Notes under the pieces: generated by a model | Told to the model about the DNA's origin: nothing | What the model saw: the letters and a program-made list of their open reading frames with translations, nothing else | Databases searched by the model: none | DNA from: Nanobdellota archaeon | Lineage (GTDB): Archaea > Nanobdellota > Nanobdellia > Parvarchaeales > Parvarchaeaceae | Assembly (NCBI GenBank): GCA_021802505.1 | Contig: JAJZXE010000003.1 | Coordinates: 8,926-72,925, forward strand | Direction of reading: 5' to 3' | DNA length: 64,000 nucleotides | Made by a program: the position numbers and the translations under genes | Shown here: in pieces, positions 21,547 to 38,493 of the stretch | How the letters are laid out: every line of letters starts with the position of its first letter | How positions within the stretch are numbered: position 1 is the stretch's first letter

Positions 21547-23472
21547 ATGGATAATAATTTTAGTATATCATTTAAGACGACGGATGACATAAAGATACCT
21601 CCCAAGATAGTAGATCAGGTCATCGGTCAGGAACAGGCGGTTGAGATAATCAAAAAAGCAGCTACTCAGCGAAGAAATGTTCTTTTGGTCGGAGCACCAG
21701 GTACTGGTAAAAGCATGCTTGGGCAGGCGCTATCACAGCTTTTACCCGCCGAGAAACTGGTGGATATCCTTGCTTTTCCAAATCCTAAAGATGAAAACGA
21801 ACCTACGATAAAAACGGTTCCTGCCGGAGAGGGTAAAAGGATAGTCAATCAGGCAAAGGCAAGAAATATGTCTGCACTGGGCGGCGGCAACAACATGATA
21901 CTCTTCCTGGGTTTTATAGTTGCGTTTTTTATAGCAACCTATGTCGTAAGCATTGTTGTTTCTGATCAGAAAAACCCGATACTTGCCGCGGCCAATCAAA
22001 TCTCCGGGACATTGTTCATAATAACCATGCTTATAGGTTTCCTTTTTGTTCTTTTGATGTACAGGCTTGGCAGGACTTCTATGAGGACTACCGTGCCGGC
22101 TCCGAAACTTCTGCTTGATAACTCAGGTGCAAAATATGCCCCCTTTGTAGATGCGACCGGTGCGAAAGAAGGAGCATTACTGGGAGATGTGCAGCACGAT
22201 CCTTTCCAGTCGGGTGGATTAGGCACGCCGGCGCATGAACGCGTCGTTTTAGGAGACATTCATAAAGCAACGGGCGGTGTTCTGTTCATAGACGAAATCG
22301 CCAATCTTTCACCGGAGACGCAGATTCAGCTTCTTACGGCCATGCAGGAAAAGAAATTAAGTATCACCGGCAGAAGTGAAAGAAGTGCGGGCGCGATGGT
22401 AAAAACCAATCCAGTCCCCTGTGATTTCATACTTGTTGGTGCCGGTAACCCTAATACGCTGAGTGAGATGAGCCCTGCTTTAAGATCCAGAATAAGGGGT
22501 TACGGTTACGAGATTTATATGAATGAGACAATGCCGGATACGGTTGAAAACAGGGATAAAATCGCAAGATTCGTTGCCCAGGAAATAAGCAAAGACACAA
22601 AGATACCTCCGTTTTCAAAGGATGCTGTCATAGAGATAGTAAATGAAGCTAGAAGAAAATCAAACAGGAAAGAGTCGCTTACTTTAAAGCTTAGGGAACT
22701 TGGTGGTATAATTAGGGTTGCAGGAGATCTCGCGGTTGAAAATAAGCATTCCGTCGTTACCAGAGATGATGTAATCAAATCTAAAGGCTATGCCGGCTCA
22801 TTTGAGCAGCAGATTGCCTCCAGATACATAAAAGAAAAGAAGGATTATGACGTTATACAGGTCAGCGGTTCAAGGATAGGAAGGGTCAACGGATTAGCAG
22901 TAATAGAAAATTCGGATTCCGGTTTAATGCTGCCTATAGAGGCAATAGTCACGAAAACCATGAGAAAAGGTGCGGGTGAGATTATCGCTACGGGTAAATT
23001 GGGGGAAATAGCGCAGGAGGCGGTAAAAAACGTCTCGGCTATCATTAAATTATACGCGAATAAGCCCCTGACAGACTATGATATACACATACAGTTCCTT
23101 CAGGCTTATTCGGGTGTAGAAGGAGACAGTGCTAGTGTGAGCGTTGCGATAAGCATTCTGTCAGCATTAACGAACATACCGATAAAACAATCAGTCGCGA
23201 TGACAGGCTCTCTTTCTATATGGGGAGAAGTCCTGCCGGTGGGAGGAGTTTCAGCCAAGGTCGAGGCGGCCATTAATGCCGGCATAAAAGAAGTGATAAT
23301 CCCCGCTTCAAATATGGATGATTTAGTCATCTCCGATCCCAAGAAAATAACAGTAATATCCGCGAATTCCGTGGCGGATGTTATAGAGCATGCAATGGTT
23401 AACAACAGACAAAAAACAAAATTACTAAATACTATAAAGAAATCGCTGAAAATAAAATATGCCAAAAAGTAA
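21547..23472 (+). CDS. lonB: archaeal membrane-bound ATP-dependent Lon protease (LonB)
   Basis: Walker A GAPGTGKS. Two TM helices are inserted in the AAA+ module. Walker B VLFIDEI. Protease domain with GDSASVS. Confidence 0.9.
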
Positions 23473-24151
23473 GGTTTTTTCCCATGTTTTCGACGAGGAA
23501 ACCCTTAAAAATGTTAATAAACTACAGGGAGACGGTTATATCGGAAATTTACTCGGGCCGATAGGTACCGGAAAAGAGTCATATGTTTTCTACAGCGAGA
23601 ATTTTAAGGGCAGAGTAGTTGCGGTCAAGATACACCGGCACAATATAGACACTTTTAAGGCAATACCCTCTTATATACGGTTAAGAGGAAAAAACACCGG
23701 CGGGTTCATTAAAAAAATAAATGATTGGACAAGGTTTGAATATAATTTTTTATCGAAGGCCTTTAATATCGGGATAAATGTACCGGAACCCATCCGCTGC
23801 TATGAAAATATAATAGTAATGGAATTCATAGGAGCAGAGGGGCGGCCGGCTCAGCCCGCAATAAAAGACAGTGATTTTGACAGCAACGAGTGGTACCCTC
23901 AAATAATCGATTATATAATAAAAATGGGAAGGAATAATTTGATACACGGCGATTTAAGCCCGTATAATATATTGAATTATAACGGAAAACCGTTCATTAT
24001 CGATTTTTCCCAGGGGCTTAAGCTTTCCAGCCTGACTAAAAGTTTTTTAGTAAGGGATATAGACAATATAAACAAGTGGTTTTTGTCTCTGGGTTATAAA
24101 AAAATCAAAGAATCACAGGAGATAATAAGAGACATCGACGAAAATCTATGA
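23459..24151 (+). CDS. RIO-type serine/threonine protein kinase
   Basis: [20 protein letters not shown] and [10 protein letters not shown] motifs. Overlaps lonB by 14 nt. Confidence 0.8.
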
Positions 24152-24459
24152 AAACCGAGGATAAGGTTTACAGTTTGCTGACTAAAATACCAAAGGGAAA
24201 AGCAACTACCTATGGAGCTATAGCAAAAACGCTTAACATAAATCCAAGACTCGTCGGCGGCATACTGAGCAGAAACAGGCACCCTGATAAATATCCCTGC
24301 TATAAAGTCATTAGATCTGACAGAAGTTTGGGCGGTTATACTGTAAACGGGAAAAACAATGAAAAAACCTTAAAAATTAAGGTTAGAAAATTGAAAGCCG
24401 ACGGTGTAAAAATAGATGAATCCGGCAGGGTGGATAAGCACTGCATTTTTTATGGCTAA
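24148..24459 (+). CDS. MGMT-family DNA-binding domain protein (alkyltransferase C-terminal domain only)
   Basis: 103 aa. TYGAIAK...NPRLVGGIL...PCYKVIRSD aligns to the PCHRV active-site region, with Cys kept and His changed to Tyr. Confidence 0.7.
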   Translation: MKTEDKVYSLLTKIPKGKATTYGAIAKTLNINPRLVGGILSRNRHPDKYPCYKVIRSDRSLGGYTVNGKNNEKTLKIKVRKLKADGVKIDESGRVDKHCIFYG

Positions 24460-24615
24460 TTTCGATATTTTGTTCTTACCTTTAAATGTATTCCATTGGC
24501 TTTTGCTACTGTGAATTAGGTATCGTTCTGGATTAAAATCGGAATAAATTGTTGAAATGGAACGTCTTAAAACTCGAATAGTATAGTATGTAAGATTTAA
24601 ATAATCTCAAATATT

Positions 24616-25899
24616 ATGAATATCATGGATGTGGAGCTTTTAAAAGTCATAATAGAAGAGCAAAGAGAAAAGATCGAAAAACTGGTAAGAAACGAAAACA
24701 TAATAGAAAGAGAATTGAAGGTGAATGGATTGATAAAAAATCCAAATTCACTGGTAATATTGGGCGTTAGACGGGCTGGCAAATCGATACTTTCGATACA
24801 GACCTTCTATGGCAGAAGATTTGCTTATATAAATTTTGATGATGAGCGGCTTATAGATTTAAACACACAGGATCTTAACAAAATATTACAGGTCTTTTAT
24901 GAATTATACGGACCAAATGTAGATAATTTAATTTTTGATGAAATACAAAATATACGTGGTTGGGAATTGTTTATAACACGGTTAAGAGACACCAATAAAG
25001 TTATAGTAACCGGGTCGAATTCCAATCTTTTGGGAGGAGAACTGGCTACTCGTCTTACGGGCAGGCACATAGATGTCACGCTTTTTCCATTCAGTTTCAA
25101 AGAGTTTTTGAAATACAAAAACTTTGAAGTCAAAGGCGCATTGACTACAAGGGAAAAAGCACAATATATTTCTCTGTTTAGAGACTATCTAAAAAACGGG
25201 GGGTTTCCAGAAGCGGTAAAATCCGGCAAAGAAATTATTACAAGCATATACAACGATATATTAAGCAAAGATATAATAACCCGGCACAAAATAAAGAAAG
25301 GAGAAGATCTGAGAAAGATAGCAAAGTATCTGATTTCAAATTCGGCGAACGAGTTTACCTTTGAATCGTTAAGGGGGTTAAGTGAAACGACCAGTCTAAT
25401 AACCATATCAAATTGGGTTAGATACCTGGAGGAGGCATATCTTGTATTTCGGCTTGAAAGGTTTTCGTTTAAATTGAAACAGACGTTTAAAGCGCCTAAA
25501 AAAATATATTGTATTGATAATGCGATTATAAACAGCATAGGCATCAAACTATCCGAGGATTTTGGTGGTTTGATGGAGAATCTGGTTGCAATAGAATTAT
25601 TCAGACAGAAAAGTTATAATAGATACCAGCAAGAAATATACTATTGGAAGGACTATCAGCAACACGAAGTGGATTTCTTAATCAAAGAACATTTCAAAGT
25701 AACCCAAATAATACAGGTGACGTACGCATCTTCCATGGAATTTATAAAGCCGCGAGAAATAAATAATCTTTTATTTGCATCCAAAGACCTTCACTGCAAC
25801 AATCTTTTAGTCATAACCTGGGACTATGAAGCTCAGGAAAAAATAGAAGGCAAGACGATAAAGTTCATCCCTTTGTGGAAATGGCTTCTTAAGGTTTAG
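24616..25899 (+). CDS. AAA+ ATPase with DUF4143 (COG1373 family)
   Basis: Walker A GVRRAGKS and Walker B LIFDEIQ. The C-terminal half is typical of COG1373. Confidence 0.8.
   Translation: MNIMDVELLKVIIEEQREKIEKLVRNENIIERELKVNGLIKNPNSLVILGVRRAGKSILSIQTFYGRRFAYINFDDERLIDLNTQDLNKILQVFYELYGPNVDNLIFDEIQNIRGWELFITRLRDTNKVIVTGSNSNLLGGELATRLTGRHIDVTLFPFSFKEFLKYKNFEVKGALTTREKAQYISLFRDYLKNGGFPEAVKSGKEIITSIYNDILSKDIITRHKIKKGEDLRKIAKYLISNSANEFTFESLRGLSETTSLITISNWVRYLEEAYLVFRLERFSFKLKQTFKAPKKIYCIDNAIINSIGIKLSEDFGGLMENLVAIELFRQKSYNRYQQEIYYWKDYQQHEVDFLIKEHFKVTQIIQVTYASSMEFIKPREINNLLFASKDLHCNNLLVITWDYEAQEKIEGKTIKFIPLWKWLLKV
25789..25871. repeat. 83-bp direct repeat, copy A (inside the 3' end of the ATPase gene)
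   Basis: 79 of 83 nt identical to 29574-29656 by hand alignment. Confidence 0.85.
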
Positions 25900-26025
25900 C
25901 TTTCTGCCTGTAGATTGCAACCTTTGCGTATCTATTGATATTATATTTCTGTTCTTCTTTCTTCCACTGTTTTTACGCTTTCCATCCTCGGAGTTGCGAT
26001 TTAAGACTTGCCGGCGCCTTTTCGT

Positions 26026-26039
26026 AAAGTATTTATTTA
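26026..26039 (+). promoter_or_regulatory. BRE/TATA-like box of the DUF2341 pilin-like gene
   Basis: AAAGTATTTATTTA. The same 11-mer occurs at 457-467. Confidence 0.45.
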
Positions 26040-26063
26040 CTCTCTCTCTCTCTCTCTCTCTCT
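26040..26063. repeat. (CT)12 dinucleotide microsatellite between TATA box and start codon
   Basis: Perfect CTCT... tract of 24 nt, followed by TAT and ATG 26067. Confidence 0.95.
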
Positions 26064-26066
26064 TAT

Positions 26067-27479
26067 ATGAGATTGACGCATAAATCGCAATCAGCATTAG
26101 AATACATGATGACCTACGGCTGGGCCATTCTGATCATAGTCATCGTAGCGGTAATCCTGTACAGCATGGGTATATTCAATCCTTCAAGCAGTGTAACTTT
26201 TACATCAAGCGGTTTCAGTCCATTCATAATATCCTCTGCTTTATGCAACAACCTGGGTTTAAACCTGGCAGTAGAAGCAGGTCCTATCCCGAACAATGCA
26301 CCGTATCTGCAGATAAAGAAGGTCTTTGTAACCTCTTCTTCAGCCGTAAACACAACAACGGCTAGTTATTCCCTTCCTTCTCCTATAACATTGAAATCAG
26401 GACAGACTGCAAATATATTAGTCCCGGATATTGCCTGTAACACGGCAAAAAGCAGGTATACAATCGCAGCAAATCTCCAGTATTACTACTCGGCAGCGGG
26501 CCTGGCGGTAAATACCAATACAACGGGCACAATAGCCGGAACATCGATATCCGGAAAACCCTCTGTAATAACATCCTATGTACCGGTGAGCATAACCAAT
26601 ACTCAGTCCTCATCAATCCCTCAGCCCTTCCAGCAGATGGTTAACATAACATCCTTAGACTCAGGTTGGACAGATATCGCATCCTCTCCCTTCGGCCAGA
26701 ACGTGGAGTTCTTTTACTACAACGGCACGATAATCCCCAGCTGGCTGGAAAACTACACCTCAAATCATGCGTTGTACTGGATAAAGACGGAGAGTATACC
26801 CGCTTCCTCATCAATAACGGTCTACATGGGCTTCGCTCCCACTTCGACAAATCTTTTTAACACTGTGAATGTAGGAGAGGCACCACAGCTTTCGGCAACA
26901 TACGGACAATACGATGACGGGGCGAACGTGTTCAATTTCTATGATAATTTCGCTGGAACTTCGCTGCCAAGCGGATGGGCTGTTTATAGTGGCGGTGGCT
27001 CATACTCTGTTAACAACGGATTAATAGTCACTTCAACAAGTAGTTCATCGACTGAAAGCATAGAATCCCCTACATTTAATTCAAATCCAGGTATAGTTGA
27101 ATGGCTTAGTGCGCCATTTATAAATAGCGTAAGCGGTGATCTACAGGAAGGGATGGGCCCTTTTAATTGTCCAGATCCAGGTAGGTTCTTTTATGATTTA
27201 TCACCATCGTCTGCAGAGATTTTTACTGGCGGCAGCGTTAATCTTCAGAATAATATAAATAATAACATATTCGGTTACGTTTTCAATGGCACAAACTCAA
27301 CTTTCTCTTTTAATTATAAAACTGTCGATGTGACCCCTGCAGGAAATCCTTATCCAGATGTCTTCTGTGATGGCAACCAAAACACCGGTACATCAATGCC
27401 GATGTTAATGTGGTTCCGTGTACGTGCATATCCTCCCGCAGGCGTAATGCCTTCCGTGACTTTCGGGAGCGTTTCTTAA
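26067..27479 (+). CDS. class III signal peptide (archaeal type IV pilin-like) protein with DUF2341/LamG-like domain
   Basis: MRLTHKS/QSALEYMMTYGWAILIIVIVAVILY is the common archaeal pilin N-terminus. ALYWIKTESIPASSSITVYMGF and NVFNFYDNFAG are typical of DUF2341. Confidence 0.85.
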   Translation: MRLTHKSQSALEYMMTYGWAILIIVIVAVILYSMGIFNPSSSVTFTSSGFSPFIISSALCNNLGLNLAVEAGPIPNNAPYLQIKKVFVTSSSAVNTTTASYSLPSPITLKSGQTANILVPDIACNTAKSRYTIAANLQYYYSAAGLAVNTNTTGTIAGTSISGKPSVITSYVPVSITNTQSSSIPQPFQQMVNITSLDSGWTDIASSPFGQNVEFFYYNGTIIPSWLENYTSNHALYWIKTESIPASSSITVYMGFAPTSTNLFNTVNVGEAPQLSATYGQYDDGANVFNFYDNFAGTSLPSGWAVYSGGGSYSVNNGLIVTSTSSSSTESIESPTFNSNPGIVEWLSAPFINSVSGDLQEGMGPFNCPDPGRFFYDLSPSSAEIFTGGSVNLQNNINNNIFGYVFNGTNSTFSFNYKTVDVTPAGNPYPDVFCDGNQNTGTSMPMLMWFRVRAYPPAGVMPSVTFGSVS

Positions 27480-27507
27480 GATCCATAGTTATTATCTGAC
27501 GTTACCC

Positions 27508-28036
27508 TTACAGCTCAGTTTTAGAACACTTCAAGCTTCTCCGCATCGGCATATTCCTAAGATAGGTCTCTGCACTCTCCAGCTTCTTGAAGTCGGCGAT
27601 GGACTTGACCAACATCATCCTGTCTTTTTCCTGATGTTTCGGCTTTCTTGAGTGGGCCAAAGACGATAGTCTGGCATGCCTGAGCAGACGAGGATTGAAG
27701 CCAGCGTGCCTAAGGACATAGGCATAGACTCTATGCCGCATCTTGTTGTCGATGAAAGGTACTGTTTTAATCTCAGTCTTTACCTCTCCGGAAGCACCCT
27801 TCTTTTTGATGATTACTTTTCGGGTCGTTTCAAGCAGCCCCGAATCGTCAAAGATGTAGGTGTCCGAGGATAGATCTAACTTCATCAATATTGCTAAATT
27901 TGGTGGCTTTCCCCTTGACTTGGGATCCAAAGATTATAACGGCGAGCACGTTTTCGTATCTCTTTATTTTACCCAGCGTTTTTTTCAGGTTGTATTCCAA
28001 ATCTAACCGCTCTATAACCGCTTCATCGCTTTTCAT
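27508..28036 (-). pseudogene. frameshifted remnant, tyrosine-recombinase-like (alternative reading: minimal nucleotidyltransferase N-terminus)
   Basis: Two overlapping minus-strand ORFs in different frames (27848-28036 and 27508-27930). KKKGASGEVKTEIKTVPF, LLRHARLSSLA and ETYLR loosely fit integrase boxes. FGSQVKGKATKFSNID could instead be a GS-x-SDID nucleotidyltransferase motif. Confidence 0.35.
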
Positions 28037-28138
28037 GGCTTTAAATCACAGCTATAATAGAAATAGTTCTCTATTATATACATCGTTAATGTCTAGGGAC
28101 AACTTTAAATGATATTGACAGTGCAAGTTATGTTAAAG

Positions 28139-28192
28139 ATTCGTATTTTTACGGTACGAAACATTTAAATATTCGTATTATCATAGTACGAA
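28139..28192. promoter_or_regulatory. two copies of palindrome ATTCGTATT-N5-GTACGAA (TTCGTA-N9-TACGAA) flanking a TATA-like box
   Basis: Copy 1 is 28139-28160 and copy 2 is 28171-28192, with CATTTAAAT between them. Copy 2 ends 1 nt before ATG 28194. Confidence 0.6.
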
Positions 28193-28193
28193 T

Positions 28194-29447
28194 ATGGAAA
28201 TAGAAAATGAAATCACTATTTTGAATGACTGGTGGAAAAGTGGAAATATAAGCGGGGAGCTTGCGAAGGGATATAAGAGAAAAGTTTTTGTAGAGTTTAA
28301 GCGGCTGTTCAAAAGCCATCGCGAGGTGCTTGTCCTTTCCGGACTTAGAAGAGTGGGGAAAACCACAATCATATATCAGCAGATAATGGATTTGCTTAAG
28401 GAGCATAAGCCAAGGTCTATCGTTTACTTTACATTTGATTATGTAACAATAAATCTGGTAGAATTATTGGATACTTATTCCAAACTAACAGGTATAGACT
28501 GGAAACACGAGAAGATCTTCCTTTTTTTGGATGAGATCCAAAAATTGAAGGGGTGGAGCTCCCAGGTAAAAGTACTTTTCGATGCCTTTCCAAACCTTAA
28601 AATAGTGGTTTCGGGATCTGCATCTTTACAGCTGGAGAAGGATGCGATGGACAACCTGGCAGGAAGACACTTTATGTTGGAAATAAAACCATTGTCTTTG
28701 GTAGAGTTTTATGAGTTGAAGTATGGAAAAGTGATTGATAGGCCCGAATTATACAGAAGCGAATTTGTCGCGGAAACAGGTTCGTATATCAAGCGACCAT
28801 TTCCAGCGGCCGTTAAGTGGAGAGATGGCGACGTTTATGCATACATCCGTGAAAGTGTGCTTTCTAAAATTATAAGGGGAGATCTGCCGGACACTTTTAG
28901 GGAAGTAAATGTAGCGTTGTTAGAAAGGATGATAGATGTATTTTATAGCAACCCAGGTATGATCATAAATGTCGACGAAATGGCGAAGAATTTTAGTATA
29001 AGCAAGACTACGTTTGAAAAGCACATGTTTTTTCTGAAATTTGCCAAATTAATACGCACATGTGCAAATTTTCGCGGTTCAGCTATTTCTATGTCACGGA
29101 AAAACAAAAAAGTATATCCTTACGATATTTCCCTTGCGTTTCCGTTTAATCCGAATGTTGGTATTGGAACCGTCACAGAAACGAAAGTCGCTTCTGTCAT
29201 AAACGCAAAAATGTATTGGCGGGATGGAAAGGACGAAGTAGACTTCGTTTCAAACCAAAAAGGAAAAGTGGAAGGGATAGAAGTAAAAGCTGCTAATATC
29301 CTAACAAAATCTGATATGACGGGCTTGCATAAATTTGCCAGAAAGTTTGGTGCTAAGAAATTCTTGATATATAACGGGAAAAAAGGGAATCTAGACCGTG
29401 TAACTCTACTTAATTTCACAGATTTTTTAATAGCTGAAAAAGTATGA
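28194..29447 (+). CDS. AAA+ ATPase with DUF4143 (COG1373 family), second paralog
   Basis: Walker A GLRRVGKT and Walker B LFLDEIQ. Same architecture as 24616-25899. Confidence 0.8.
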   Translation: MEIENEITILNDWWKSGNISGELAKGYKRKVFVEFKRLFKSHREVLVLSGLRRVGKTTIIYQQIMDLLKEHKPRSIVYFTFDYVTINLVELLDTYSKLTGIDWKHEKIFLFLDEIQKLKGWSSQVKVLFDAFPNLKIVVSGSASLQLEKDAMDNLAGRHFMLEIKPLSLVEFYELKYGKVIDRPELYRSEFVAETGSYIKRPFPAAVKWRDGDVYAYIRESVLSKIIRGDLPDTFREVNVALLERMIDVFYSNPGMIINVDEMAKNFSISKTTFEKHMFFLKFAKLIRTCANFRGSAISMSRKNKKVYPYDISLAFPFNPNVGIGTVTETKVASVINAKMYWRDGKDEVDFVSNQKGKVEGIEVKAANILTKSDMTGLHKFARKFGAKKFLIYNGKKGNLDRVTLLNFTDFLIAEKV

Positions 29448-29544
29448 AATAATCTATTCTGATTTTCGTCTACCGTAATGTATACCCTACACATACCTTT
29501 GTAAATTAGGGTTGTTTATACACTTATGTTTAATATGAACATAA

Positions 29545-29684
29545 TTGACAATCTCCTAATCGCCTCCGAAGAACTTCACTGCAACAATCTTTTAGTCATA
29601 ACCTGGGACTACTAAGCTCAGGAAAAGATAGACGGCAAGACGATAAAGTTCATCCCACTGTGAAAGGGGCTCCTTAATATAAAG
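29545..29684 (+). pseudogene. decayed 3' fragment of a COG1373 ATPase gene (contains repeat copy B)
   Basis: Translates to IIDNLLIASEELHCNNLLVITWDY*AQEKIDGKTIKFIPL*KGLL. The intact gene 24616-25899 has EINNLLFASKDLHCNNLLVITWDYEAQEKIEGKTIKFIPLWKWLL. Confidence 0.75.
29574..29656. repeat. 83-bp direct repeat, copy B
   Basis: 79 of 83 nt identical to 25789-25871. Confidence 0.85.
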
Positions 29685-29905
29685 TAAACTTTCCTATTAG
29701 ATCAAGTTGACAAACATACAATCAAAACATTTAAATAAAAAACATAAGCATTCATATGTTTGACGGCTGCAAAGACAATAACAAAAAGAAATCATTAAAT
29801 GGTAGTTCCCATATATATTCATTTATATTACTTTCTTTTAAGACTGCTTCCTTCAGTAAGAGAGACAATAAAGTCAATCGATTCCGTATAAAATATAAAT
29901 ATCAA

Positions 29906-29989
29906 CGCTGGGTGCAGGATTCGAACCTACGCAGGGAAAATCCCAACTGGCTCTCAAGGCCAGCGCTTTAACCGCTCAGCCAACCCAGC
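29906..29989 (-). tRNA. tRNA-Ser (anticodon UGA)
   Basis: Reverse complement folds with acceptor GCUGGGU/ACCCAGC, anticodon arm CUGGC-CUUGAGA-GCCAG, a long variable arm and T arm GUAGG-UUCGAAU-CCUGC. Discriminator G. Confidence 0.9.
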
Positions 29990-30045
29990 AATATTTAACT
30001 ATATAACCACTTAGTCTAAATATAAGTATGTTTTATTTTTAAGAT

Positions 30046-30879
30046 TTGATGTGCATGGAACTGGATATTAAAGGGTTTTCCCTTGATAGGACATTGGATG
30101 CTGGACAGATATTCGCTTTTTTTAAAGAGAAAGAGCATTGGTACTCCTTTATAGACAAGCCCATCGCATTAAAACAAACAGGATCAAAATTAGAGATAAT
30201 GGGTGCGGGCAAGAGCGAAATCAAAGAGCTACTGGGTTTAAATGATAATATTGAAGAAGTCAAAGCGGAAATAGATAAAGATGATTTTATAGACAAAGCA
30301 ATCAGATACTCCGGTTCGTTAAGGGTGGTAAAAAGCGGATTATGGCCCGCTACACTGGGTTTTATTCTGTCCATCCAGTCAAACATAAATCTTATACTGA
30401 AAAGGATAAAGGCAATGTCTCGATTTTACGGCAACGACGGCGAGATAAACGGTATGCCTATAAAAAGTTTTCCGTCTTTTGATGTAATATACTCTAAGGG
30501 CTACGCGGCTTTAAAACGGTTTAAACTGGGATTCAGGACAAAATTCGTGTTTTCGGCCGCGGAATATTTCTACAGGAATGAAATCAGCGATAAATTCACG
30601 AAAGAGCAGATAAGCAGAAATCTTTTTGATATAGACGGCGTTGGGGAAAAAGTGCTTGATTGTATACTGCTGTATGGCCTGCATGACCTGTCTTCTTTCC
30701 CGATGGATGTGTGGATATCGCGGACGCTGTCGCTTTATTACGGTAGGATACTAAAGAATGCTAAAAATTACAGGGATAAAAGAAAAGCAATGACGGATTA
30801 TTTTGGCAGATATGCGGGGTATGCACAGCTCTTCATATATGATTACTCCAGGCTTAATTCAATCAGATCTAAAATTTAA
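30046..30879 (+). CDS. ogg: 8-oxoguanine DNA glycosylase / AP lyase (Ogg, HhH-GPD family)
   Basis: N-terminal LDAGQIF motif. HhH-GPD region DIDGVGEKVLDCILLYGL...FPMDVWI carries the catalytic Lys and Asp. Confidence 0.75.
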   Translation: MMCMELDIKGFSLDRTLDAGQIFAFFKEKEHWYSFIDKPIALKQTGSKLEIMGAGKSEIKELLGLNDNIEEVKAEIDKDDFIDKAIRYSGSLRVVKSGLWPATLGFILSIQSNINLILKRIKAMSRFYGNDGEINGMPIKSFPSFDVIYSKGYAALKRFKLGFRTKFVFSAAEYFYRNEISDKFTKEQISRNLFDIDGVGEKVLDCILLYGLHDLSSFPMDVWISRTLSLYYGRILKNAKNYRDKRKAMTDYFGRYAGYAQLFIYDYSRLNSIRSKI

Positions 30880-31969
30880 CAGTCTTTAATTCTTTGAGAC
30901 TGTCACTTATGATTTTTTTCATGTCTATTTTATCTTCCAACTCTTTTATTATATCCTGTGTAGACTTAGTGGCCGGGTTGCTTGATACCAGTGAGCAGCA
31001 GTCTTTGTATTCTTCTATTGAAAGGTCGTAAAAGCCGTATTTTATCGATTTTTCGATTATTTCCAGTTTGTTGTATCCGATGAAAGGCCGGAAAATCGGC
31101 AGGTCAATTCCAAAGCTTATGGCATTTATGTTTTCAATGGTCTGTGATGCCACCTGTGACAGTGCATCCCCCGTTATTATTGCCATGTATTTTTTATCCC
31201 TGCTTATCTCCTCCGCTAATTTCAACAGGAACCGCTTGAAAAGCACCAATTCGTACCTTTTTTCTATCTTAAGCGCGGAAACGCTGAAGTAATGAAAAGG
31301 GACAAGATATAAGTTAAGACCCGATTCAAACTCGCTAAGTTTCCCAGCTATCGTGTTTATCTTACCGTTAAGCGCCGAGTCCGGCGAGTTTAATGCGTAT
31401 ACATGCAGCAGGTCGACTTTAGACCCTCTTTTTATCAGTTCTATAGGGGCGATTGTTGAGTCTATTCCCCCCGAAAAAAGAGCTAGAAGTCTTCCGGAAC
31501 TGCCGATTGGCAGCCCACCCATACCTTTTTCAATGCTATAATTTATTATAAATGAATCCTTCATTATCTCAATTCTTATTTTTTCCCCGTTTTTATCAAA
31601 CCTCAACCCCAGCTCTTTTGCCACCTGTTCCTTTATTTCAACAGAGGTCTTGGCGTAGCTTTTGTCTACACGTTTAACGTCGATATTTACATTCTTGCGC
31701 TCACCGAGTATCTTCTTAAGCAGTTCCTCCAGCTGTTCGATTTTTCTGTCAATTATGTAAGCCTCGCTCGACCAGGATACTCCCGGCGTAAATTTTATTT
31801 TTTGCAAGTCTTCCTTATCATAATTTTCCAGTATCAACCTGCTTTCTACCGCTTTAATCGGTTTGTTAATCCTGTTTTTTATGTTTTTTACAAGAAGGCC
31901 TTGAAAGTATCCGCGTTGCTTCCCTTTTAATGCTATCTCATCATAATGAATTGAAAGTATTTTTTTCAT
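30869..31969 (-). CDS. thiI: tRNA 4-thiouridine synthase ThiI (THUMP + PP-loop)
   Basis: N-terminal HYDEIALKGKQRGYF and PP-loop LFSGGIDS. No rhodanese domain. Confidence 0.85.
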   Translation of the reverse strand: MKKILSIHYDEIALKGKQRGYFQGLLVKNIKNRINKPIKAVESRLILENYDKEDLQKIKFTPGVSWSSEAYIIDRKIEQLEELLKKILGERKNVNIDVKRVDKSYAKTSVEIKEQVAKELGLRFDKNGEKIRIEIMKDSFIINYSIEKGMGGLPIGSSGRLLALFSGGIDSTIAPIELIKRGSKVDLLHVYALNSPDSALNGKINTIAGKLSEFESGLNLYLVPFHYFSVSALKIEKRYELVLFKRFLLKLAEEISRDKKYMAIITGDALSQVASQTIENINAISFGIDLPIFRPFIGYNKLEIIEKSIKYGFYDLSIEEYKDCCSLVSSNPATKSTQDIIKELEDKIDMKKIISDSLKELKTVKF

Positions 31970-32397
31970 ATATCCAACACGACTCTAGCACTCCATTCTC
32001 CACCCTTATTTTGTACCTTAAGCAGGTGCATAGTGGCAGCCTTTACGTCAACAACGAACTGGTGCCTGGCGGGGTCAAGCTTCTCCCCCTTCGCGGTGCA
32101 GTAAGCAGTCCAGCTGTCAAGACGGTTTTCCACCTTTACATCCACATTACCAAAGATTAGTTGTTCAGTATCTTTATAGAATATAAGCCTGTCAAGGAAT
32201 CTTATCAAAAGAAGATCAAGATCCTTGGAGGTTACTTCAAATTCACGGGTTATTCTTGTGTTTATAGCGGTTGGGTTTTTAATCATCGTGTTCGCCAGTG
32301 CATCAGCCGCATATTCAAGCACCTCTTCTAAATTATCACCATGGACTTCAAATGCAACATCCGCTATAGATAGATTTTCTAAGAATTTGTAGCCCAT
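31966..32397 (-). CDS. archease (RtcB activator)
   Basis: 143 aa. The IADVAFEVHG start is typical of archease. Sits immediately downstream of rtcB and overlaps thiI by 4 nt. Confidence 0.85.
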   Translation of the reverse strand: MGYKFLENLSIADVAFEVHGDNLEEVLEYAADALANTMIKNPTAINTRITREFEVTSKDLDLLLIRFLDRLIFYKDTEQLIFGNVDVKVENRLDSWTAYCTAKGEKLDPARHQFVVDVKAATMHLLKVQNKGGEWSARVVLDI

Positions 32398-32398
32398 A

Positions 32399-35392
32399 TC
32401 ATCCCTTCACATTTGATAAAGGCGTGAATCTGCAGACCTTTTTTGAGAGGCCCGCCGCATCGACTGCATTTACCACTTCGTCTATGTCTTTATAACTGGC
32501 GCCGCTTTCTTCCGCTAAACCCGACCACGAAACGCTTTTTACATATATACCGTTCTTTAGCATCTTTTGAAATAGTTCTTTACCGTCTACCATGCTCCTG
32601 GCTTTTGTCCTGCTCATCGTTCTGCCGCTGCCATGTGCGGTAGAATTGAAAGTCTGCGGGGCGTTGGGGCCTCCGACCATTAAGTATGAACCTGTTTCCA
32701 TACTGCCTCCGATTATAACGGGAGAGCCGTCATTCCTGAATCGTTTAGGTATCTCTCTTCGTCCCCGTGGGTAAGAACCTGTGCTTCCTTTTCTATGGAC
32801 CAACAATTTCTTGTTTTCGCCGTCTATTTCATGCATCTCTAAGGATGCACGATTGTGTGCTATATCGAACAGCTGCTCAAGTCCGAGTTTATCCGCGTCT
32901 TTTTTGAAGGTTTCTGAGAAGGCTTCCCTTAGCTTGTGAAGGATAAGCTGCCTGTTTGCGAAACTTATATTTACGCCGCACCCCATTGCCTTATAGTAAT
33001 CCTGGCCTTCCTTCGAATCAAAAGGTGCACACGCCAGCTCTTTATCCTGAGTCTTTATCCTGTACTTGCTTTCCATTACACTTAGAAAAGTCTGTATGTA
33101 ATCGCTTGCTATCTGGTGGCCTGCGCCTCTTGAGCCCGTATGGAACATTATGACCACCTGATTGGGGAACAATCCCCACTTTTTGGCGAGCTTGTTGTCT
33201 TTTATATCGCCTGGTTTTATGTATTGGATTTCCAAGTAATGGTTTCCGGACCCGAGGGTGCCTATCTGTTTGACTCCCCTCGAAATTGCCATATCAGATA
33301 TCTTAGAGCTGTCCGCCCAGTCGGCTACTCCCCCGAGTTCAGTGGATCCGAGATCTTCTTTCCACCCATATCCTTTCTTGATAGCCCACTTTGCTCCTTC
33401 CTCAGATAGGTTTTTGAAATCCTTTTTGTCTATGTCTAGTTTGCTCTTGCTGCCCACACCCGCAGGCACCTTATTGAACAAATTATCAGTTAGCTCTTTT
33501 ATCTTTGGTTTGATATCTTTTATGGTAAGATTTGTAGTTATCAACCGCATGCCACAGTTTGAAACTAGTACCCCATTAGCCAGAAAGTTATGGTTTTCAT
33601 CGGCCATGCTTAAATCATATACCTGGCCATCAAACTTAGATTCTTCTATATTGATAATTTTATCGTAGACTAATCCGCTTGTGCCAATTTCCCGCGATTT
33701 ACAGAATTCTTCAAATCTTTCTATACCATAGATTCTGGGTATACCGCGGCTGTCAAAAATTGATTTGTATATGAAATTTTTCCCGGCTTCTTCACATTCT
33801 AAATTATTGACAATACGGCTGGCACTCCCTCTTCCGGTATACATTTCAATCGCACTTCTCTTTATAATCTCGCGTTTTTCTCTAACGGCATTCAAATATT
33901 GTAAGTATACCGCAGCCAAGCTTCCGAGTCTCTCTCTTTCTTTATTATAACTATAACCCACTTCGCTAAAAAATTTTATTAAGTTTTTGGTATTAGATTT
34001 TATGCCTAATCTAAATCCTACAGATTTTCCATCAATTCCAAAGTAATCATATCCCTTCACTCTAGTTGGATTTATGCATTCTATTCCGAGCTCCTTAAGT
34101 ATGAACTGTATATCTTTTATGAATAGAAGTGCACTCCGTTCAAGGCGTTCTAATTTGTTTACACTAAATGTCGGCGCACTAAAATTGTATCCATTATTGG
34201 TTTGCGGTTTTGATAATTCCGCACCGAAATACGCGGATATAAAAAGTCGCATCATCCATTTTTCACCATTTATTATCCATTTTGGTACCCTATATGCTAT
34301 TTTAGTTTTCTTTCCGATAGGAGTTCCCAGCAGAGCCAGTAAAATTATTATAGACTTATTCTGTACGTGTAAAGAATGTTCTATGCAGTCAAACTCTGAT
34401 ACACCATAGGCAGTATTAATCCTGCTATGTCTCGGTCTGCTATAGATTTTACCCTTAAATCCAAGTTCATTGACATCCATTAATATATTTTTCAAGTCGT
34501 CTTTTTTACCATAAAATGATAAAGTATTGGTTTTTGGAGTTGATACTATAGCCCCATCGCCAAATACAAAGCCCATTAATTTTATAAGGATTGGCAATCT
34601 ATTATCGTCACTATCTATCTCCGTTAGCATACGTTGCTTAAGTGAATTTAAAATCTGGGTTTTAGCATTCCCGTGTTCATTTGTTATTCCTAACTTATCC
34701 ATAAAATTTATTAATAAAGTTTCTGTAACTATTTTCTTGTGCTGGTTATTTCTGTACTCCACCCCGTCGAAACCAGAAATTGCTATTTCTTCGCGTTCCT
34801 TTAATTCTCCCGCTTTTACCATGCCATTTTTAGTTAAAACCGGGTGATCTTTGGTTAGTAATATATTTTTACCGCAATAAGTGGTGATTTTAGTTATCGT
34901 ATTTGCCCCTTTCCTTAAAATAAGCATGGGTTCTGTGTGCTTTTCAGTTTCACTTTTATAATCGAGACTTATCACAGTATCAGAATAATCAAAGTCTTTG
35001 ATAGGTTTCCATAGTCCGTGCCTGTTTAATATCCTTGTAGAACTGTGAAGACAATTGATATCAAATCCAACAATTCCAGGGGAGATAATGCCGCCATTGT
35101 TTACGTCGAAAGCTGCCACACCGCCGATAGGTGAAGAGTACCCGCTGTGGCCATCCGGCATGACAAAAGCATACTTCTCTATGCCTGGCAGCACAGCTAT
35201 GTTGGAAATCTGGTCAAAGACCTGGCTATCCATTCCTTTTAAGAGTTTTTCGGTAGCATATACTCTTACAGGGACTCTCATCCCCTGTTTGAAGTCCTTG
35301 TCTATCTCCCATATCGTGTCTGAAATCTTCGTGAACTTCGGCTCTTGGAAATCAATATCTGTTTTCATATTACAATCATTTATTACATACAT
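32399..35392 (-). CDS. rtcB: RNA-splicing ligase RtcB interrupted by a 499-aa intein
   Basis: Exteins total 113 + 385 aa, with PDGHSGY, GSGNHY, HTGSRG and AHGSGR motifs. The intein sits between FDIN and CGMRL. The true start may be ATG 35368 (MKTDIDF). Confidence 0.9.
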   Translation of the reverse strand: MYVINDCNMKTDIDFQEPKFTKISDTIWEIDKDFKQGMRVPVRVYATEKLLKGMDSQVFDQISNIAVLPGIEKYAFVMPDGHSGYSSPIGGVAAFDVNNGGIISPGIVGFDINCLHSSTRILNRHGLWKPIKDFDYSDTVISLDYKSETEKHTEPMLILRKGANTITKITTYCGKNILLTKDHPVLTKNGMVKAGELKEREEIAISGFDGVEYRNNQHKKIVTETLLINFMDKLGITNEHGNAKTQILNSLKQRMLTEIDSDDNRLPILIKLMGFVFGDGAIVSTPKTNTLSFYGKKDDLKNILMDVNELGFKGKIYSRPRHSRINTAYGVSEFDCIEHSLHVQNKSIIILLALLGTPIGKKTKIAYRVPKWIINGEKWMMRLFISAYFGAELSKPQTNNGYNFSAPTFSVNKLERLERSALLFIKDIQFILKELGIECINPTRVKGYDYFGIDGKSVGFRLGIKSNTKNLIKFFSEVGYSYNKERERLGSLAAVYLQYLNAVREKREIIKRSAIEMYTGRGSASRIVNNLECEEAGKNFIYKSIFDSRGIPRIYGIERFEEFCKSREIGTSGLVYDKIINIEESKFDGQVYDLSMADENHNFLANGVLVSNCGMRLITTNLTIKDIKPKIKELTDNLFNKVPAGVGSKSKLDIDKKDFKNLSEEGAKWAIKKGYGWKEDLGSTELGGVADWADSSKISDMAISRGVKQIGTLGSGNHYLEIQYIKPGDIKDNKLAKKWGLFPNQVVIMFHTGSRGAGHQIASDYIQTFLSVMESKYRIKTQDKELACAPFDSKEGQDYYKAMGCGVNISFANRQLILHKLREAFSETFKKDADKLGLEQLFDIAHNRASLEMHEIDGENKKLLVHRKGSTGSYPRGRREIPKRFRNDGSPVIIGGSMETGSYLMVGGPNAPQTFNSTAHGSGRTMSRTKARSMVDGKELFQKMLKNGIYVKSVSWSGLAEESGASYKDIDEVVNAVDAAGLSKKVCRFTPLSNVKG
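33557..35053 (-). mobile_element. intein with LAGLIDADG homing-endonuclease domain inside rtcB
   Basis: Begins CLHSSTRIL, block B is TKDHPVLT, the LAGLIDADG motifs are LMGFVFGDGAI and FISAYFGAELS, and it ends NGVLVSN before extein Cys. Boundary codons were checked against the nucleotide sequence. Confidence 0.85.
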
Positions 35393-35459
35393 AAATTAAT
35401 AGCTATAACCTCCATGAGGTCGTGTTTTAACCAGAATATTGCAAAATAGAGGGAGTTAG

Positions 35460-36224
35460 TCACCCGTTGCTCATATTGTTGTATCCTTTTAGTACATTAG
35501 CATTATCCTCTTCCAGTTTCATCTGATTTACTTTTTCAAGTATCTCTTTTTTGTCCATTTTTTTGCTGCACAATATTATTGTGTTTCCGGATCCCAGTGG
35601 ATTATTGACCAGGTATACTTTGAAATATTTTTTAAGTTTGTTTATATAATTTTGAAGGAAAACTATCGCCTTAAAACTCATAGCATAGTTTATGGCAAGC
35701 ACCCCCTCCTCAGTAAGTGCATTGTTTATGCTTTCCACCGTCTTTTCATCAAGAAATTCATCGGGTATTTTATCCCCGTCATATGCATCTAAGAACACCA
35801 ATTCATACTTTTTTTTGTTTTTATTCAGGAATTTTATGCCGTCTTCCAGAAATAAATTCACTTTTTTTATGTCTTCCGGAATGAAATCTTCTGCGAGTTC
35901 TATCATTTTTTCATCTATTTCAACTACATCCATTTGCACTTTTTTTCCGTATAATCTGTTTATCTGGTATACAATGGTTCCTCCGCCCAAGCCTATCATG
36001 AGGATATTTGACTTTTGGTAAAGCAATGGCAAAGGTGTGAAATAATCCCAATAAGAACCTGTAAACAGTTTATTTTCATTTCGTCTCGAATAAGTTATTC
36101 CGTTAAATTTTACGCTTAGTCCATCAGGACCTTTTGTAAGCGTAAGAATCTTTTTATCGTCTTTTTCTGTTTTTATTATTTTTTCTCCTTTTATTCTCTC
36201 AATTATTTTATTTATTACGTTCAT
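35460..36224 (-). CDS. spermidine synthase-like / class I SAM-dependent transferase
   Basis: ILMIGLGGGT, VVEIDEKMIELA and VFLDAYDGD motifs. Confidence 0.55.
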   Translation of the reverse strand: MNVINKIIERIKGEKIIKTEKDDKKILTLTKGPDGLSVKFNGITYSRRNENKLFTGSYWDYFTPLPLLYQKSNILMIGLGGGTIVYQINRLYGKKVQMDVVEIDEKMIELAEDFIPEDIKKVNLFLEDGIKFLNKNKKKYELVFLDAYDGDKIPDEFLDEKTVESINNALTEEGVLAINYAMSFKAIVFLQNYINKLKKYFKVYLVNNPLGSGNTIILCSKKMDKKEILEKVNQMKLEEDNANVLKGYNNMSNG

Positions 36225-38493
36225 ATTTTCTGAGACCTGGCCACCAGTTGTATTTTTGCAGTAAAAACATTATAGAAGGGACTATAAACAGAACAGATAG
36301 GACCGAATCGATTAAGATACCAACTGCAACTATAAACCCTACTTCTGCTATTATAGGCACACCGCTGGCAATAAGTGATAAAAACACAACGGAAAATATC
36401 ACACCGATGCTTGCGACAACCGGTCCGCTCTTCATCAATCCAAGTTTTACCGCCTCAAAATTATTCTTCCCCATTTTTACATATTCTCTTATGCGCATGA
36501 CCAAAAATATATCATAATCTACTCCAACCCCCATTATACTGGTTATGAGAAATACCTGCGCTATAGATATGAACGGAAAAGACAGTATGTAATGAAATAT
36601 CACCAGTGTAATTCCGTTTGCGGCTATTACGTTTGCAATTATAAGAAGTACGAGTCTTAGCGGGGTATAGACCGAAAAAAGTATTATGAAAAGAACTGTG
36701 AATATCATTGAGCCTAGTGCCAGTATAAGCAGCGGAACATCACTGTTCATAGTCTGTACCGCATTTCCTAAAAAAACCTGAAGACCCGTAATGGTGTATT
36801 TTACGTTTATCTTTTTAAGATAGTTGTTTATATTCTGATAGTCGTTCAATGCGGCGGTGCTAAAACCAAGCGGTTTAAGGTAAGCAGTCACCCGAAATGA
36901 GCCGTTCGCTCCGCCGATTTGTGTGTATGCAACGCCGTTCATCGATTTAATTGAGTTATAGATTGCTGTGCTGTTCAAATTCTGTGCGGGAGTTATGTTT
37001 ATTATTAAGGGATCTATAGGATCAAATTTAAAGTTGTTTGTAGCGATATAAAAAGCAGTTTTTGACTGTGAATTTGGCAGTAACCCAAGAAAATTTAGTC
37101 CGGGATGATACACTACAAAAAAATACGCGGCTATCGCAATTAAAAATACAAATATTGAAATTATTACATATCTGTTTTTGTAATCGAATTCAGCCAATTT
37201 TTCGAAAGCTCTTTCAAATGAAAATCCAGGTTTAAAATTCGGGTAGAAGACCTTCTTTCCAAAAGATATCAATATGGACGGCATTAAAGTAACGGCCGAT
37301 ATCAGAACCACAAGGACACCTACAGAATCGAGGATTCCTGTAGACCCAAGAAATGCGAGATTAAATCCAGAGAGTATACTGTAAGCTAAGATTACAGTAG
37401 TGCCGCTAACGAGTATAGCCGCACCGGCTCCCCCCACGCTTAGTTTCACGCTTTCCCTATGGTTTTTCTTAAGTTCCTGTTTAAACCTGTAAAGCATGTA
37501 TACCAAATAATCTGTTGATATTCCTAACATTAGTATTGCTGCAAGAGCCGGATCAAAGAATGATACAGTACTTCTTAATATCACGTGGTATATAACATAG
37601 AAAATGGAAAAAGCGATCGTAAGGTCAATTCCATATACCATCAGCGGCACAAATGCAGCGATCGGCGACTTAAAAATAAATCCCGTTATGATTATGACCA
37701 TGAGTATTCCTATTGCTATTGCAAGAAAAGTTCCAAAATCCGTTTCATTTTTTATGTTACTGCTTAAGCCTGTTGATCCAGTTACGTATGATTTTATGCC
37801 GTAATTCCCGGAAATTTTTCCGATGTATGAATTTACGAATGAATAGTTAGAATTGTTTACTATTGTAATTGTGGTGGTGTGGTTATAATTTATCAAAGTC
37901 TCTGTTTCTGTGCTGTTTTGCACTATCGGGTAAGTAGTAAAGTTATATTGGTTGATTATATATAATGGCGTTGAATTTGTATAATCTTTTATGACTCCGA
38001 TAATAAAATCATATGAAGAATTTCTAAGTACTAATCCAGAATCGTTTAAATTTTCCTGTATCCCTTTTGCTATATTCTCTATTATGGTATTGTTTATACT
38101 TTTTGGAGCTGTTTTTGGGGTCAGATTATATTTTGAATAAGCAAGACTTAATGCTATTTCTGAGTTTTTCTTTATCGTATAATACGATGAATTCAATATA
38201 TTATATTCCACAGAGTATATCGATGTTATGTTCCGATATGTGAATGCATCCGATATCCTTTCGAAAAAACTTTTGCTGCTGTTTGAGAATGAATTATTGC
38301 TTACACTGACAATTAGCTGAACAGAATTTCCGCTGCTGCTGTTGTTTGAGCTGCTGGTTACGTTATAAGACACTATGCTAAATAAGTGTATAGCCACAGG
38401 TATTGAAATTAAAAAGATTATAATCCAAATCGCTATTATTTTTTTATGATGTTTGTCTATTATATCGCTGAATTTTCTTAAGTTTACTTCCAT
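36208..38493 (-). CDS. MMPL / RND-superfamily exporter
   Basis: 761 aa. Two blocks of about 5-6 TM helices, each preceded by a large extracytoplasmic domain. Confidence 0.7.
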   Translation of the reverse strand: MEVNLRKFSDIIDKHHKKIIAIWIIIFLISIPVAIHLFSIVSYNVTSSSNNSSSGNSVQLIVSVSNNSFSNSSKSFFERISDAFTYRNITSIYSVEYNILNSSYYTIKKNSEIALSLAYSKYNLTPKTAPKSINNTIIENIAKGIQENLNDSGLVLRNSSYDFIIGVIKDYTNSTPLYIINQYNFTTYPIVQNSTETETLINYNHTTTITIVNNSNYSFVNSYIGKISGNYGIKSYVTGSTGLSSNIKNETDFGTFLAIAIGILMVIIITGFIFKSPIAAFVPLMVYGIDLTIAFSIFYVIYHVILRSTVSFFDPALAAILMLGISTDYLVYMLYRFKQELKKNHRESVKLSVGGAGAAILVSGTTVILAYSILSGFNLAFLGSTGILDSVGVLVVLISAVTLMPSILISFGKKVFYPNFKPGFSFERAFEKLAEFDYKNRYVIISIFVFLIAIAAYFFVVYHPGLNFLGLLPNSQSKTAFYIATNNFKFDPIDPLIINITPAQNLNSTAIYNSIKSMNGVAYTQIGGANGSFRVTAYLKPLGFSTAALNDYQNINNYLKKINVKYTITGLQVFLGNAVQTMNSDVPLLILALGSMIFTVLFIILFSVYTPLRLVLLIIANVIAANGITLVIFHYILSFPFISIAQVFLITSIMGVGVDYDIFLVMRIREYVKMGKNNFEAVKLGLMKSGPVVASIGVIFSVVFLSLIASGVPIIAEVGFIVAVGILIDSVLSVLFIVPSIMFLLQKYNWWPGLRKYERNK

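Follow-up and report, generated by a model that had tools for sequence, protein, structure and literature searches.

Genes of the PDC-S01 type, a candidate single-gene defence system, are reported to be abundant in Archaea, to be enriched together with other PDCs in the DPANN group and to have repeatedly been transferred between domains (PMC12988326), and the DUF4143 domain found in the ATPases described here has been placed in the PD-(D/E)XK superfamily (PMC3424549). Here we analyse a direct repeat formed by the 3' end of such an ATPase gene in a 64,000-nucleotide (nt) stretch of DNA, hereafter the window, from Parvarchaeum, an acid-mine "ARMAN" nano-archaeon of the DPANN group. The window is contig C8 of a 763-kb genome (G000; 28 contigs, 84% complete) whose nearest named relative is Candidatus Parvarchaeum acidiphilum ARMAN-4 (scaffold GG730073.1, L025). 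One copy of the repeat, copy A, is the intact end of a COG1373-type ATPase gene, ATP1; the other, copy B, is a decayed ATPase tail close to the gene for tRNA-Ser(UGA), beyond a pilin-like gene and a second ATPase gene, ATP2. We conclude that copy B is a recombination scar, and not the footprint of an integrase-driven mobile element.

The closest described systems resemble this locus in some respects and differ from it in others. Tyrosine-recombinase elements that target the 3' end of a gene leave, as here, an intact gene end at one border and a decaying duplicate at the other. In our locus, however, the recombinase is absent, the identity of the repeat is patchy, no matching empty site was found in the genomes compared, and copy B continues into downstream sequence of another kind, matching a paralogous module. 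The tRNA-adjacent hypervariable defence islands share with the locus a variable content at one site beside the 3' end of a tRNA gene, empty sites in congeners, a cargo of PDC-S01 ATPases together with nucleotidyltransferase or toxin-antitoxin modules, and whole-block exchange between diverged lineages via conserved flanks. Unlike those islands, the present one has no integrase, no tRNA attachment-site (att) repeat and no compositional signature, and among its genes is one for a pilin-like surface protein, with a body that is swapped from strain to strain. As in the PDC-S01 system, ATP1 and ATP2 match the PADLOC models end to end, with AAA_14 followed by DUF4143 in both; the Parvarchaeum subfamily differs in that it is coupled to pilin-like genes and in that its 3' end persists as orphan fragments, and its defence role is a predicted one. 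The Neisseria pilE/pilS system shares with the locus a conserved 5' region and a variable body, which between strains is replaced within identical flanks; here, however, neither a silent promoterless cassette array nor a guanine-quadruplex or dedicated initiation site is apparent, and the variation lies between genomes rather than within a clone.

Copy B and the junction it preserves

A repeat search paired positions 25758-25892 of the window with 29543-29677 (135 nt, 85% identity, spacing 3785 nt; blastn E=1e-32). An initial annotation, made from the sequence alone, had reported a direct repeat of 83 nt (25789-25871 and 29574-29656) with 79/83 identical positions. The repeat is real and longer than this, and its 83-nt core is identical at 77/83 to 79/83 positions, about 93%. 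In the ATP1 frame copy B reads IDNLLIASEELHCNNLLVITWDY*AQEKIDGKTIKFIPL*KGLLNI, where copy A reads INNLLFASKDLHCNNLLVITWDYEAQEKIEGKTIKFIPLWKWLLKV*; the in-frame TAA and TGA codons that had been described are thus both present on translation, and the view of copy B as a decayed duplicate of the 3' end of a COG1373 ATPase gene is supported. The weaker homology that had been proposed on both sides of the repeat did not withstand examination. To the left, the 96 nt preceding copy B gave a local alignment score against the ATPase below that of shuffled controls. To the right, the alignment of A with B ends at the ATPase stop codon, and what similarity copy B has there is to a paralogous locus on contig C24 and not to A. 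The features of the locus are as follows.

24616-25899, plus strand: ATP1, COG1373-type ATPase with AAA_14 and DUF4143 (Pfam E=8e-32 and 5e-25; PDC-S01 E=4e-100)
25758-25892, plus strand: repeat copy A, the intact final 45 codons of ATP1
25900-26066, plus strand: leader A, with a TATA-like box and a (CT)12 tract (26040-26063), upstream of the pilin-like gene and not homologous to the sequence after copy B
26067-27479, plus strand: pilin-like surface protein with a class III signal peptide (KSQSALEYMMTYGW) and DUF2341 (Pfam E=5e-9); body variable between strains
27508-28036, minus strand: frameshifted pair of open reading frames (ORFs), a nucleotidyltransferase pseudogene; N-terminal 62 amino acids of MNT type, 140-amino-acid part without relatives
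28194-29447, plus strand: ATP2, second PDC-S01-type ATPase with AAA_14/DUF4143 (PADLOC PDC-S01 E=1e-47)
29448-29542, plus strand: spacer in which no homology to an ATPase was detectable, marking where the stump is broken off on the left
29543-29683, plus strand: repeat copy B, ATPase tail pseudogene with in-frame TAA and TGA; mosaic of A-like and C24-like sequence
29684-29825, plus strand: leader B relic, a spacer with TATA-like TTTAAATA (29730-29737), an ATG at 29756 and about 23 codons, homologous to the C24 pilin start
29905-29990, minus strand: tRNA-Ser(UGA), its 3' end towards the island; right edge of the block shared with ARMAN-4

The C24 locus belongs to the same genome, and its positions 35247-35518 match window positions 29550-29820 at 78.7% identity over 272 nt (blastn). 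The matched stretch of C24 spans the end of an intact ATPase gene (34092-35384), a spacer with AAACATTTAAATAAAAAA and the start of a 520-amino-acid pilin-like ORF (35454-37016). That TATA-like box recurs behind copy B at 29730-29737; there, the ATG at 29756 opens MFDGCKDNNKKKSLNGSSHIYSF, the counterpart of which in the C24 pilin is MFNSRKDNNREKSSSGSSHTYSY, and the homology stops near 29825, 80 nt short of the tRNA gene. Leader B resembles C24 only, and leader A is unrelated to it. Copy B itself is a mosaic, with a left 23 nt that are 65% identical to A and 61% to C24, a central 83 nt at 93% versus 82%, and a right 44 nt at 64% versus 77%. Two residues follow WLL in A and in the ATP1 orthologues, and three in B and C24. 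Since tail, spacer and pilin start are all shared with C24, copy B appears to be not merely a tail: together with the following ~140 nt (29543-29825) it can be read as the stump of a C24-type ATPase-pilin module junction with an A-like patch mid-way. One of the two origins first suggested, the relic of a multi-copy ATPase array reduced by deletion, comes closer to this picture than the other; besides the tail, copy B carries a promoter spacer and a pilin start.

Two further tail copies occur in the genome, both on C24. An orphan ATPase tail lies upstream of the C24 ATPase-pilin module (33841-33901). Three pairs of winged helix-turn-helix (wHTH)-nucleotidyltransferase and HEPN genes also lie upstream of that module (29602-33752). 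The stump is decaying slowly, its TGA stop being fixed (12/12 assemblies) and its TAA stop still polymorphic, reading GAA in L110, L118 and ARMAN-4; the order ATP1, pilin, pseudogene, ATP2, copy B and tRNA-Ser is the same in all 12 assemblies.

The initial annotation preferred an integrative element that had left a recombinase remnant. This reading is not supported: there is no integrase, the composition is average and no matching empty site was found. Both ORFs of the frameshifted pair, as well as their read-through product, were searched against Pfam, NCBIfam, PHROGs and PADLOC. The 62-amino-acid N-terminal ORF matches Polbeta/NTP_transf_2, MntA and PADLOC PDC-S09 over residues 17-51, with scores at or below the family cut-offs and a broken frame, and for the 140-amino-acid ORF and the read-through product nothing else was found in Pfam (E<=10) or PHROGs (E<=1). 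A complete nucleotidyltransferase fold with its GS...DxD motif is not present in 27508-28036, no HEPN gene adjoins it, and tblastn found no paralogue of its products in the genome. We therefore reject this pair as a recombinase remnant, as only a nucleotidyltransferase N-terminus was matched and no integrase signal was seen. A six-frame search of the whole genome for PF00589, with stops read through, gave 0 matches, while 14/14 control genomes were positive; by the same search, a XerA-like gene was not detected in this 84%-complete genome. Neither a partial tRNA copy nor any other att-like repeat is present at the locus, positions 29780-29915 showed no homology to the tRNA-proximal DNA of relatives, and the bracketed 3.7 kb, for which a compositional shift had been considered, are genome-average (GC 0.407 versus a genome mean of 0.408; tetranucleotide distance at the 31st percentile).

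ATPase tails and pilin-like genes across the genus

The closest paralogue of ATP1 is the C24 ATPase, and vice versa (50.6% amino-acid identity), and the divergence of the two is uneven along the gene. Synonymous divergence (pS) is saturated in the body, at 0.84, but not in the last 38 codons, at 0.53, while non-synonymous differences drop from 0.37 in the body to 0.11 in the tail. In another member of the genus, YP1.bin68 (JAKASS010000020.1, L031), two ATPases with unlike bodies have tails that are 95% identical over 111 nt. A 155-nt tail query found one to 10 places in 18/24 same-genus genomes and no match in the other genera searched. These places were compared with the positions of the pilin signal-peptide motif GARTAYATGATGACNTAYGGNTGGGC, which occurs as many as 21 times in a single one of the same-genus genomes searched. 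A pilin start was found 71-252 nt 3' of the tail, on the same strand, in 20/32 tails, and at least nine of these 20 pilin-linked tails lack an ATPase body. An alignment of 13 tails shows the final ~60 nt to be conserved in all of them, orphans included, and the substitutions in orphan tails fall mostly at third codon positions.

In genome G004, nine of the nine tails stand exactly 71 nt before the pilin motif, and ~30 nt ahead of the pilin ATG there is a TTTAAAT box that shares bases with the ATPase stop codon. Part of this genome (L027; G004:C3:23000-35461) carries five pilin-like genes in an array; their leaders and signal peptides are near-identical, and a tail fragment precedes each gene. 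The left ends of these fragments are ragged, and in the five copies aligned they begin between query positions 10 and 107; the first tail is full-length, yet has no ATPase body 5' of it. The intervening genes are AbiE-like pairs, MNT/HEPN pairs and one PDC-S01 ATPase with a different end. Because tails are shared between unlike bodies, diverge less than the bodies and are orphaned in many places, the results show that in this genus they undergo concerted evolution or exchange, with frequent orphaning, and copy B adds another such orphan.

A variable island beside tRNA-Ser

The tRNA-Ser(UGA) gene that had been noted beyond copy B lies on the minus strand at 29905-29990, 222-228 nt away from it, and was the sole match in an RNA-family search of 24000-30500. 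In three congeners (G005, G019 and G022) an MGMT-like gene abuts this tRNA gene and the entire interval is missing; elsewhere the interval holds one pilin gene (G012) or an ATPase and a pilin (G003), and G011 has lost the MGMT-like gene. As the interval is empty in some congeners and variable in others, the whole 5.4 kb (24460 to 29904) is inserted DNA relative to several of them. The proposal of inserted DNA near tRNA-Ser is thus borne out; however, the empty sites found lack the entire island, and not exactly the segment bracketed by A and B. It should be noted that a conspecific genome (G045) has an assembly gap at the island position, and that the ARMAN-4 bin is composite, with two versions of the tRNA-Ser/OGG locus present.

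Comparison with ARMAN-4 delimits a 6.5-kb block that includes the island.

23457-29995, no strand: block shared with ARMAN-4 GG730073.1, 98-100% identical except for the pilin body; flanks 61-82%

The block comprises the RIO kinase gene, the MGMT-like gene, ATP1, the 5' end of the pilin gene, the pseudogene, ATP2, copy B and tRNA-Ser. Identity to ARMAN-4 is 67-82% up to 23456, 98-100% from 23457 to 26156, 34-56% over most of the pilin body, 99-100% from 27600 to ~29995 and 61-81% beyond. A near-identical block within flanks of 61-82% points to recent exchange between lineages, and the block from the RIO kinase start to tRNA-Ser was probably exchanged between diverged lineages via its conserved flanks, while a double assembly chimera is an unlikely source of the pattern. 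The bounds of the exchange are the Lon/RIO junction and the tRNA gene. The A/B duplication is older than this exchange. Within the block, identity to ARMAN-4 dips to 93% at tail B, where the ARMAN-4 copy has seven differences in 45 nt (window 29600-29650 versus L025 10620-10670) and the flanking ~600 nt are identical; this clustering may reflect conversion by other tails, or an error in the consensus sequence. The ARMAN-4 scaffold also holds a second, partial copy of the RIO 3' end, MGMT-like gene and ATP1 5' end (L025 265-1011, 92%), before a truncated acetyl-CoA synthetase gene, which could be either a rearrangement or a scaffold chimera.

The gene content that had been described for the segment (the pilin-signal DUF2341 gene with its CT tract, the frameshifted ORFs and the second COG1373 ATPase) was found as stated. 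The pilin-like product has an N-terminal class III signal peptide followed by a hydrophobic helix (MRLTHKSQSALEYMMTYGWAILIIVIVAVILYSMG). Its body (26217-27400) is replaced between otherwise identical copies of the island, being mostly 34-56% identical to that of ARMAN-4, and a conspecific strain with 99.2% identical flanks (L110) has a different C-terminal part; across assemblies the product is 456, 457, 470, 504 or 512 amino acids long. In place of the (CT)12 tract in its leader, a 99.9%-identical JGI contig (L109) has (CT)13; the ARMAN-4 tract is 8 nt shorter and interrupted.

ATP2 is 29% identical to ATP1. Among the same-genus genomes searched it occurs in the genome of the window, in G013 (100%) and in G010 (47%), where it stands alone between housekeeping genes, and it is absent from the others. 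Immediately 5' of its start codon there are two repeat units of 28 nt, spaced 32 nt apart and 82% identical to each other (28133-28192). An orthologue of ATP1 (79%) is found alone in a different context elsewhere, and ATP1-like proteins of 41-62% identity occur in many archaeal and bacterial phyla, a wide spread in line with published work that describes PDC-S01 as a candidate defence gene transferred many times (PMC12988326).

How copy B may have arisen

We favour, with somewhat better than even confidence, the reading that copy B is the stump left by turnover of ATPase-pilin modules in a hypervariable island, with the A/B repeat produced by paralogy and tail conversion. A second ATPase-pilin module, of the C24 type, would once have adjoined tRNA-Ser; arrival of the block with the nucleotidyltransferase pseudogene and ATP2 would have removed its ATPase body, and a separate deletion its pilin. 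The A/B repeat would then reflect paralogy between two module tails, not duplication of an attachment site, and its 93%-identical central patch would be due to gene conversion between tails. Under such a scheme host recombination, with no dedicated recombinase, would gain, replace and lose PDC-S01 ATPases, nucleotidyltransferase modules and pilin-like genes. Some points weigh against this history. No genome was found with an intact second module at the site, and the order of events is our reconstruction; two losses are needed, of the ATPase body and of the pilin; and the type of tail end is weak evidence, given that homogenisation makes the tails of one genome alike. Furthermore, YP1.bin68 has an ATPase/AbiE segment flanked by 304-nt direct repeats (98-100% identical) of the 3' end of a host gene, which shows that gene-tail duplication does accompany insertion in this genus.

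That observation bears on the main alternative, which we consider possible but rather unlikely, namely an integrase-free, Campbell-type insertion. A circle carrying an orphan tail, leader A, the pilin, the nucleotidyltransferase and ATP2 would have entered by a single homologous crossover in the ATP1 tail; copy B and leader B would be the original ATP1 end, displaced by 3.8 kb, and the pilin behind them would have been deleted later. The units of orphan tail plus pilin that this requires are common in the genus, ATP2 is sporadic and recently acquired, and the close paralogy of ATP1 and the C24 ATPase makes a C24-type leader behind ATP1 plausible. The YP1.bin68 segment is a direct parallel.

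L031 2325-2628 and 7693-7995: 304-nt direct repeat, 98-100% identical, made of the 3' end of a HAD hydrolase gene and 66 nt

The 5.4 kb that this repeat brackets hold two ATPase genes, one of them an ATP1 orthologue, and an AbiEi/AbiEii-like pair; as for an empty HAD site, neither the 25 relatives searched nor the genome of the window has the HAD gene. On contig C19 (29673-31665), an MNT/HEPN pair similarly lies between two copies of a 76-nt direct repeat (87%). However, the empty site that such an insertion predicts is in none of the 46 same-genus genomes or 12 assemblies searched, where ATP1 joined to leader B was found 0 times (metagenome pattern scans for this junction were also zero, but so was the control with leader B alone, and they carry no weight). 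The 3' side and the leader of copy B are of the C24 kind, whereas the ends of ATP1 orthologues resemble A; the composition of the segment is genome-average; and loss of the pilin is required here too as a second event, which brings the number of events to that of module turnover.

A broader view, which we hold to be doubtful, is that the PDC-S01 3' end and the pilin leader of Parvarchaeum form a portable homology junction, an integrase-free cassette system for surface variation of which copy B would be one spent junction. Host recombination would in this case duplicate, swap and horizontally exchange pilin-like cassettes together with neighbouring defence genes.

It is improbable, in our judgement, that the tail and leader have been kept as a working regulatory region or homology anchor of pilin cassettes and that no ATPase body ever stood at B, which would be the 5' flank of a cassette, spread by gene-conversion tracts from the conserved pilin 5' end upstream. 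The G004 tails suggest something of this kind, given their uniform 71-nt distance from the pilin motif (nine of nine), the near-identical leaders and ragged left ends of the five aligned C3 copies and the TTTAAAT box over the stop codon, as does the conservation of the last ~60 nt in every orphan. Yet there is no pilin behind copy B, which is accumulating stops, the TATA box of the B/C24 type lies in the spacer and not in the tail, and the mostly third-position substitutions of orphans suggest an origin as coding tails rather than constraint at the DNA level.

Finally, a tyrosine-recombinase element that had entered the ATP1 3' end with a replacement tail, its recombinase gene (27508-28036) being inactivated later, is highly improbable: it would suit a cargo-like segment between direct repeats, adjoining a tRNA gene and containing a disrupted ORF pair, but that pair resembles only nucleotidyltransferase models (Polbeta, NTP_transf_2, MntA and PDC-S09) with no Pfam or PHROG integrase match at E<=10, PF00589 is absent from a genome searched in six frames alongside 14/14 positive controls, the repeat has patchy identity (65/93/64%) with no clean core, and there is neither a shift in composition nor a partial tRNA copy or att-like repeat.

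The stump itself is an ordinary recombination scar, and its context is more useful than the scar. The site is a hot spot in uncultured ARMAN nano-archaea, at which candidate defence ATPases and pilin-like proteins turn over together. ARMAN nano-archaea depend on cell contact, and diversification of their surface proteins bears on host attachment and on virus avoidance. The linkage of ATPase tails to pilin-like genes across the genus provides a concrete, testable pattern.

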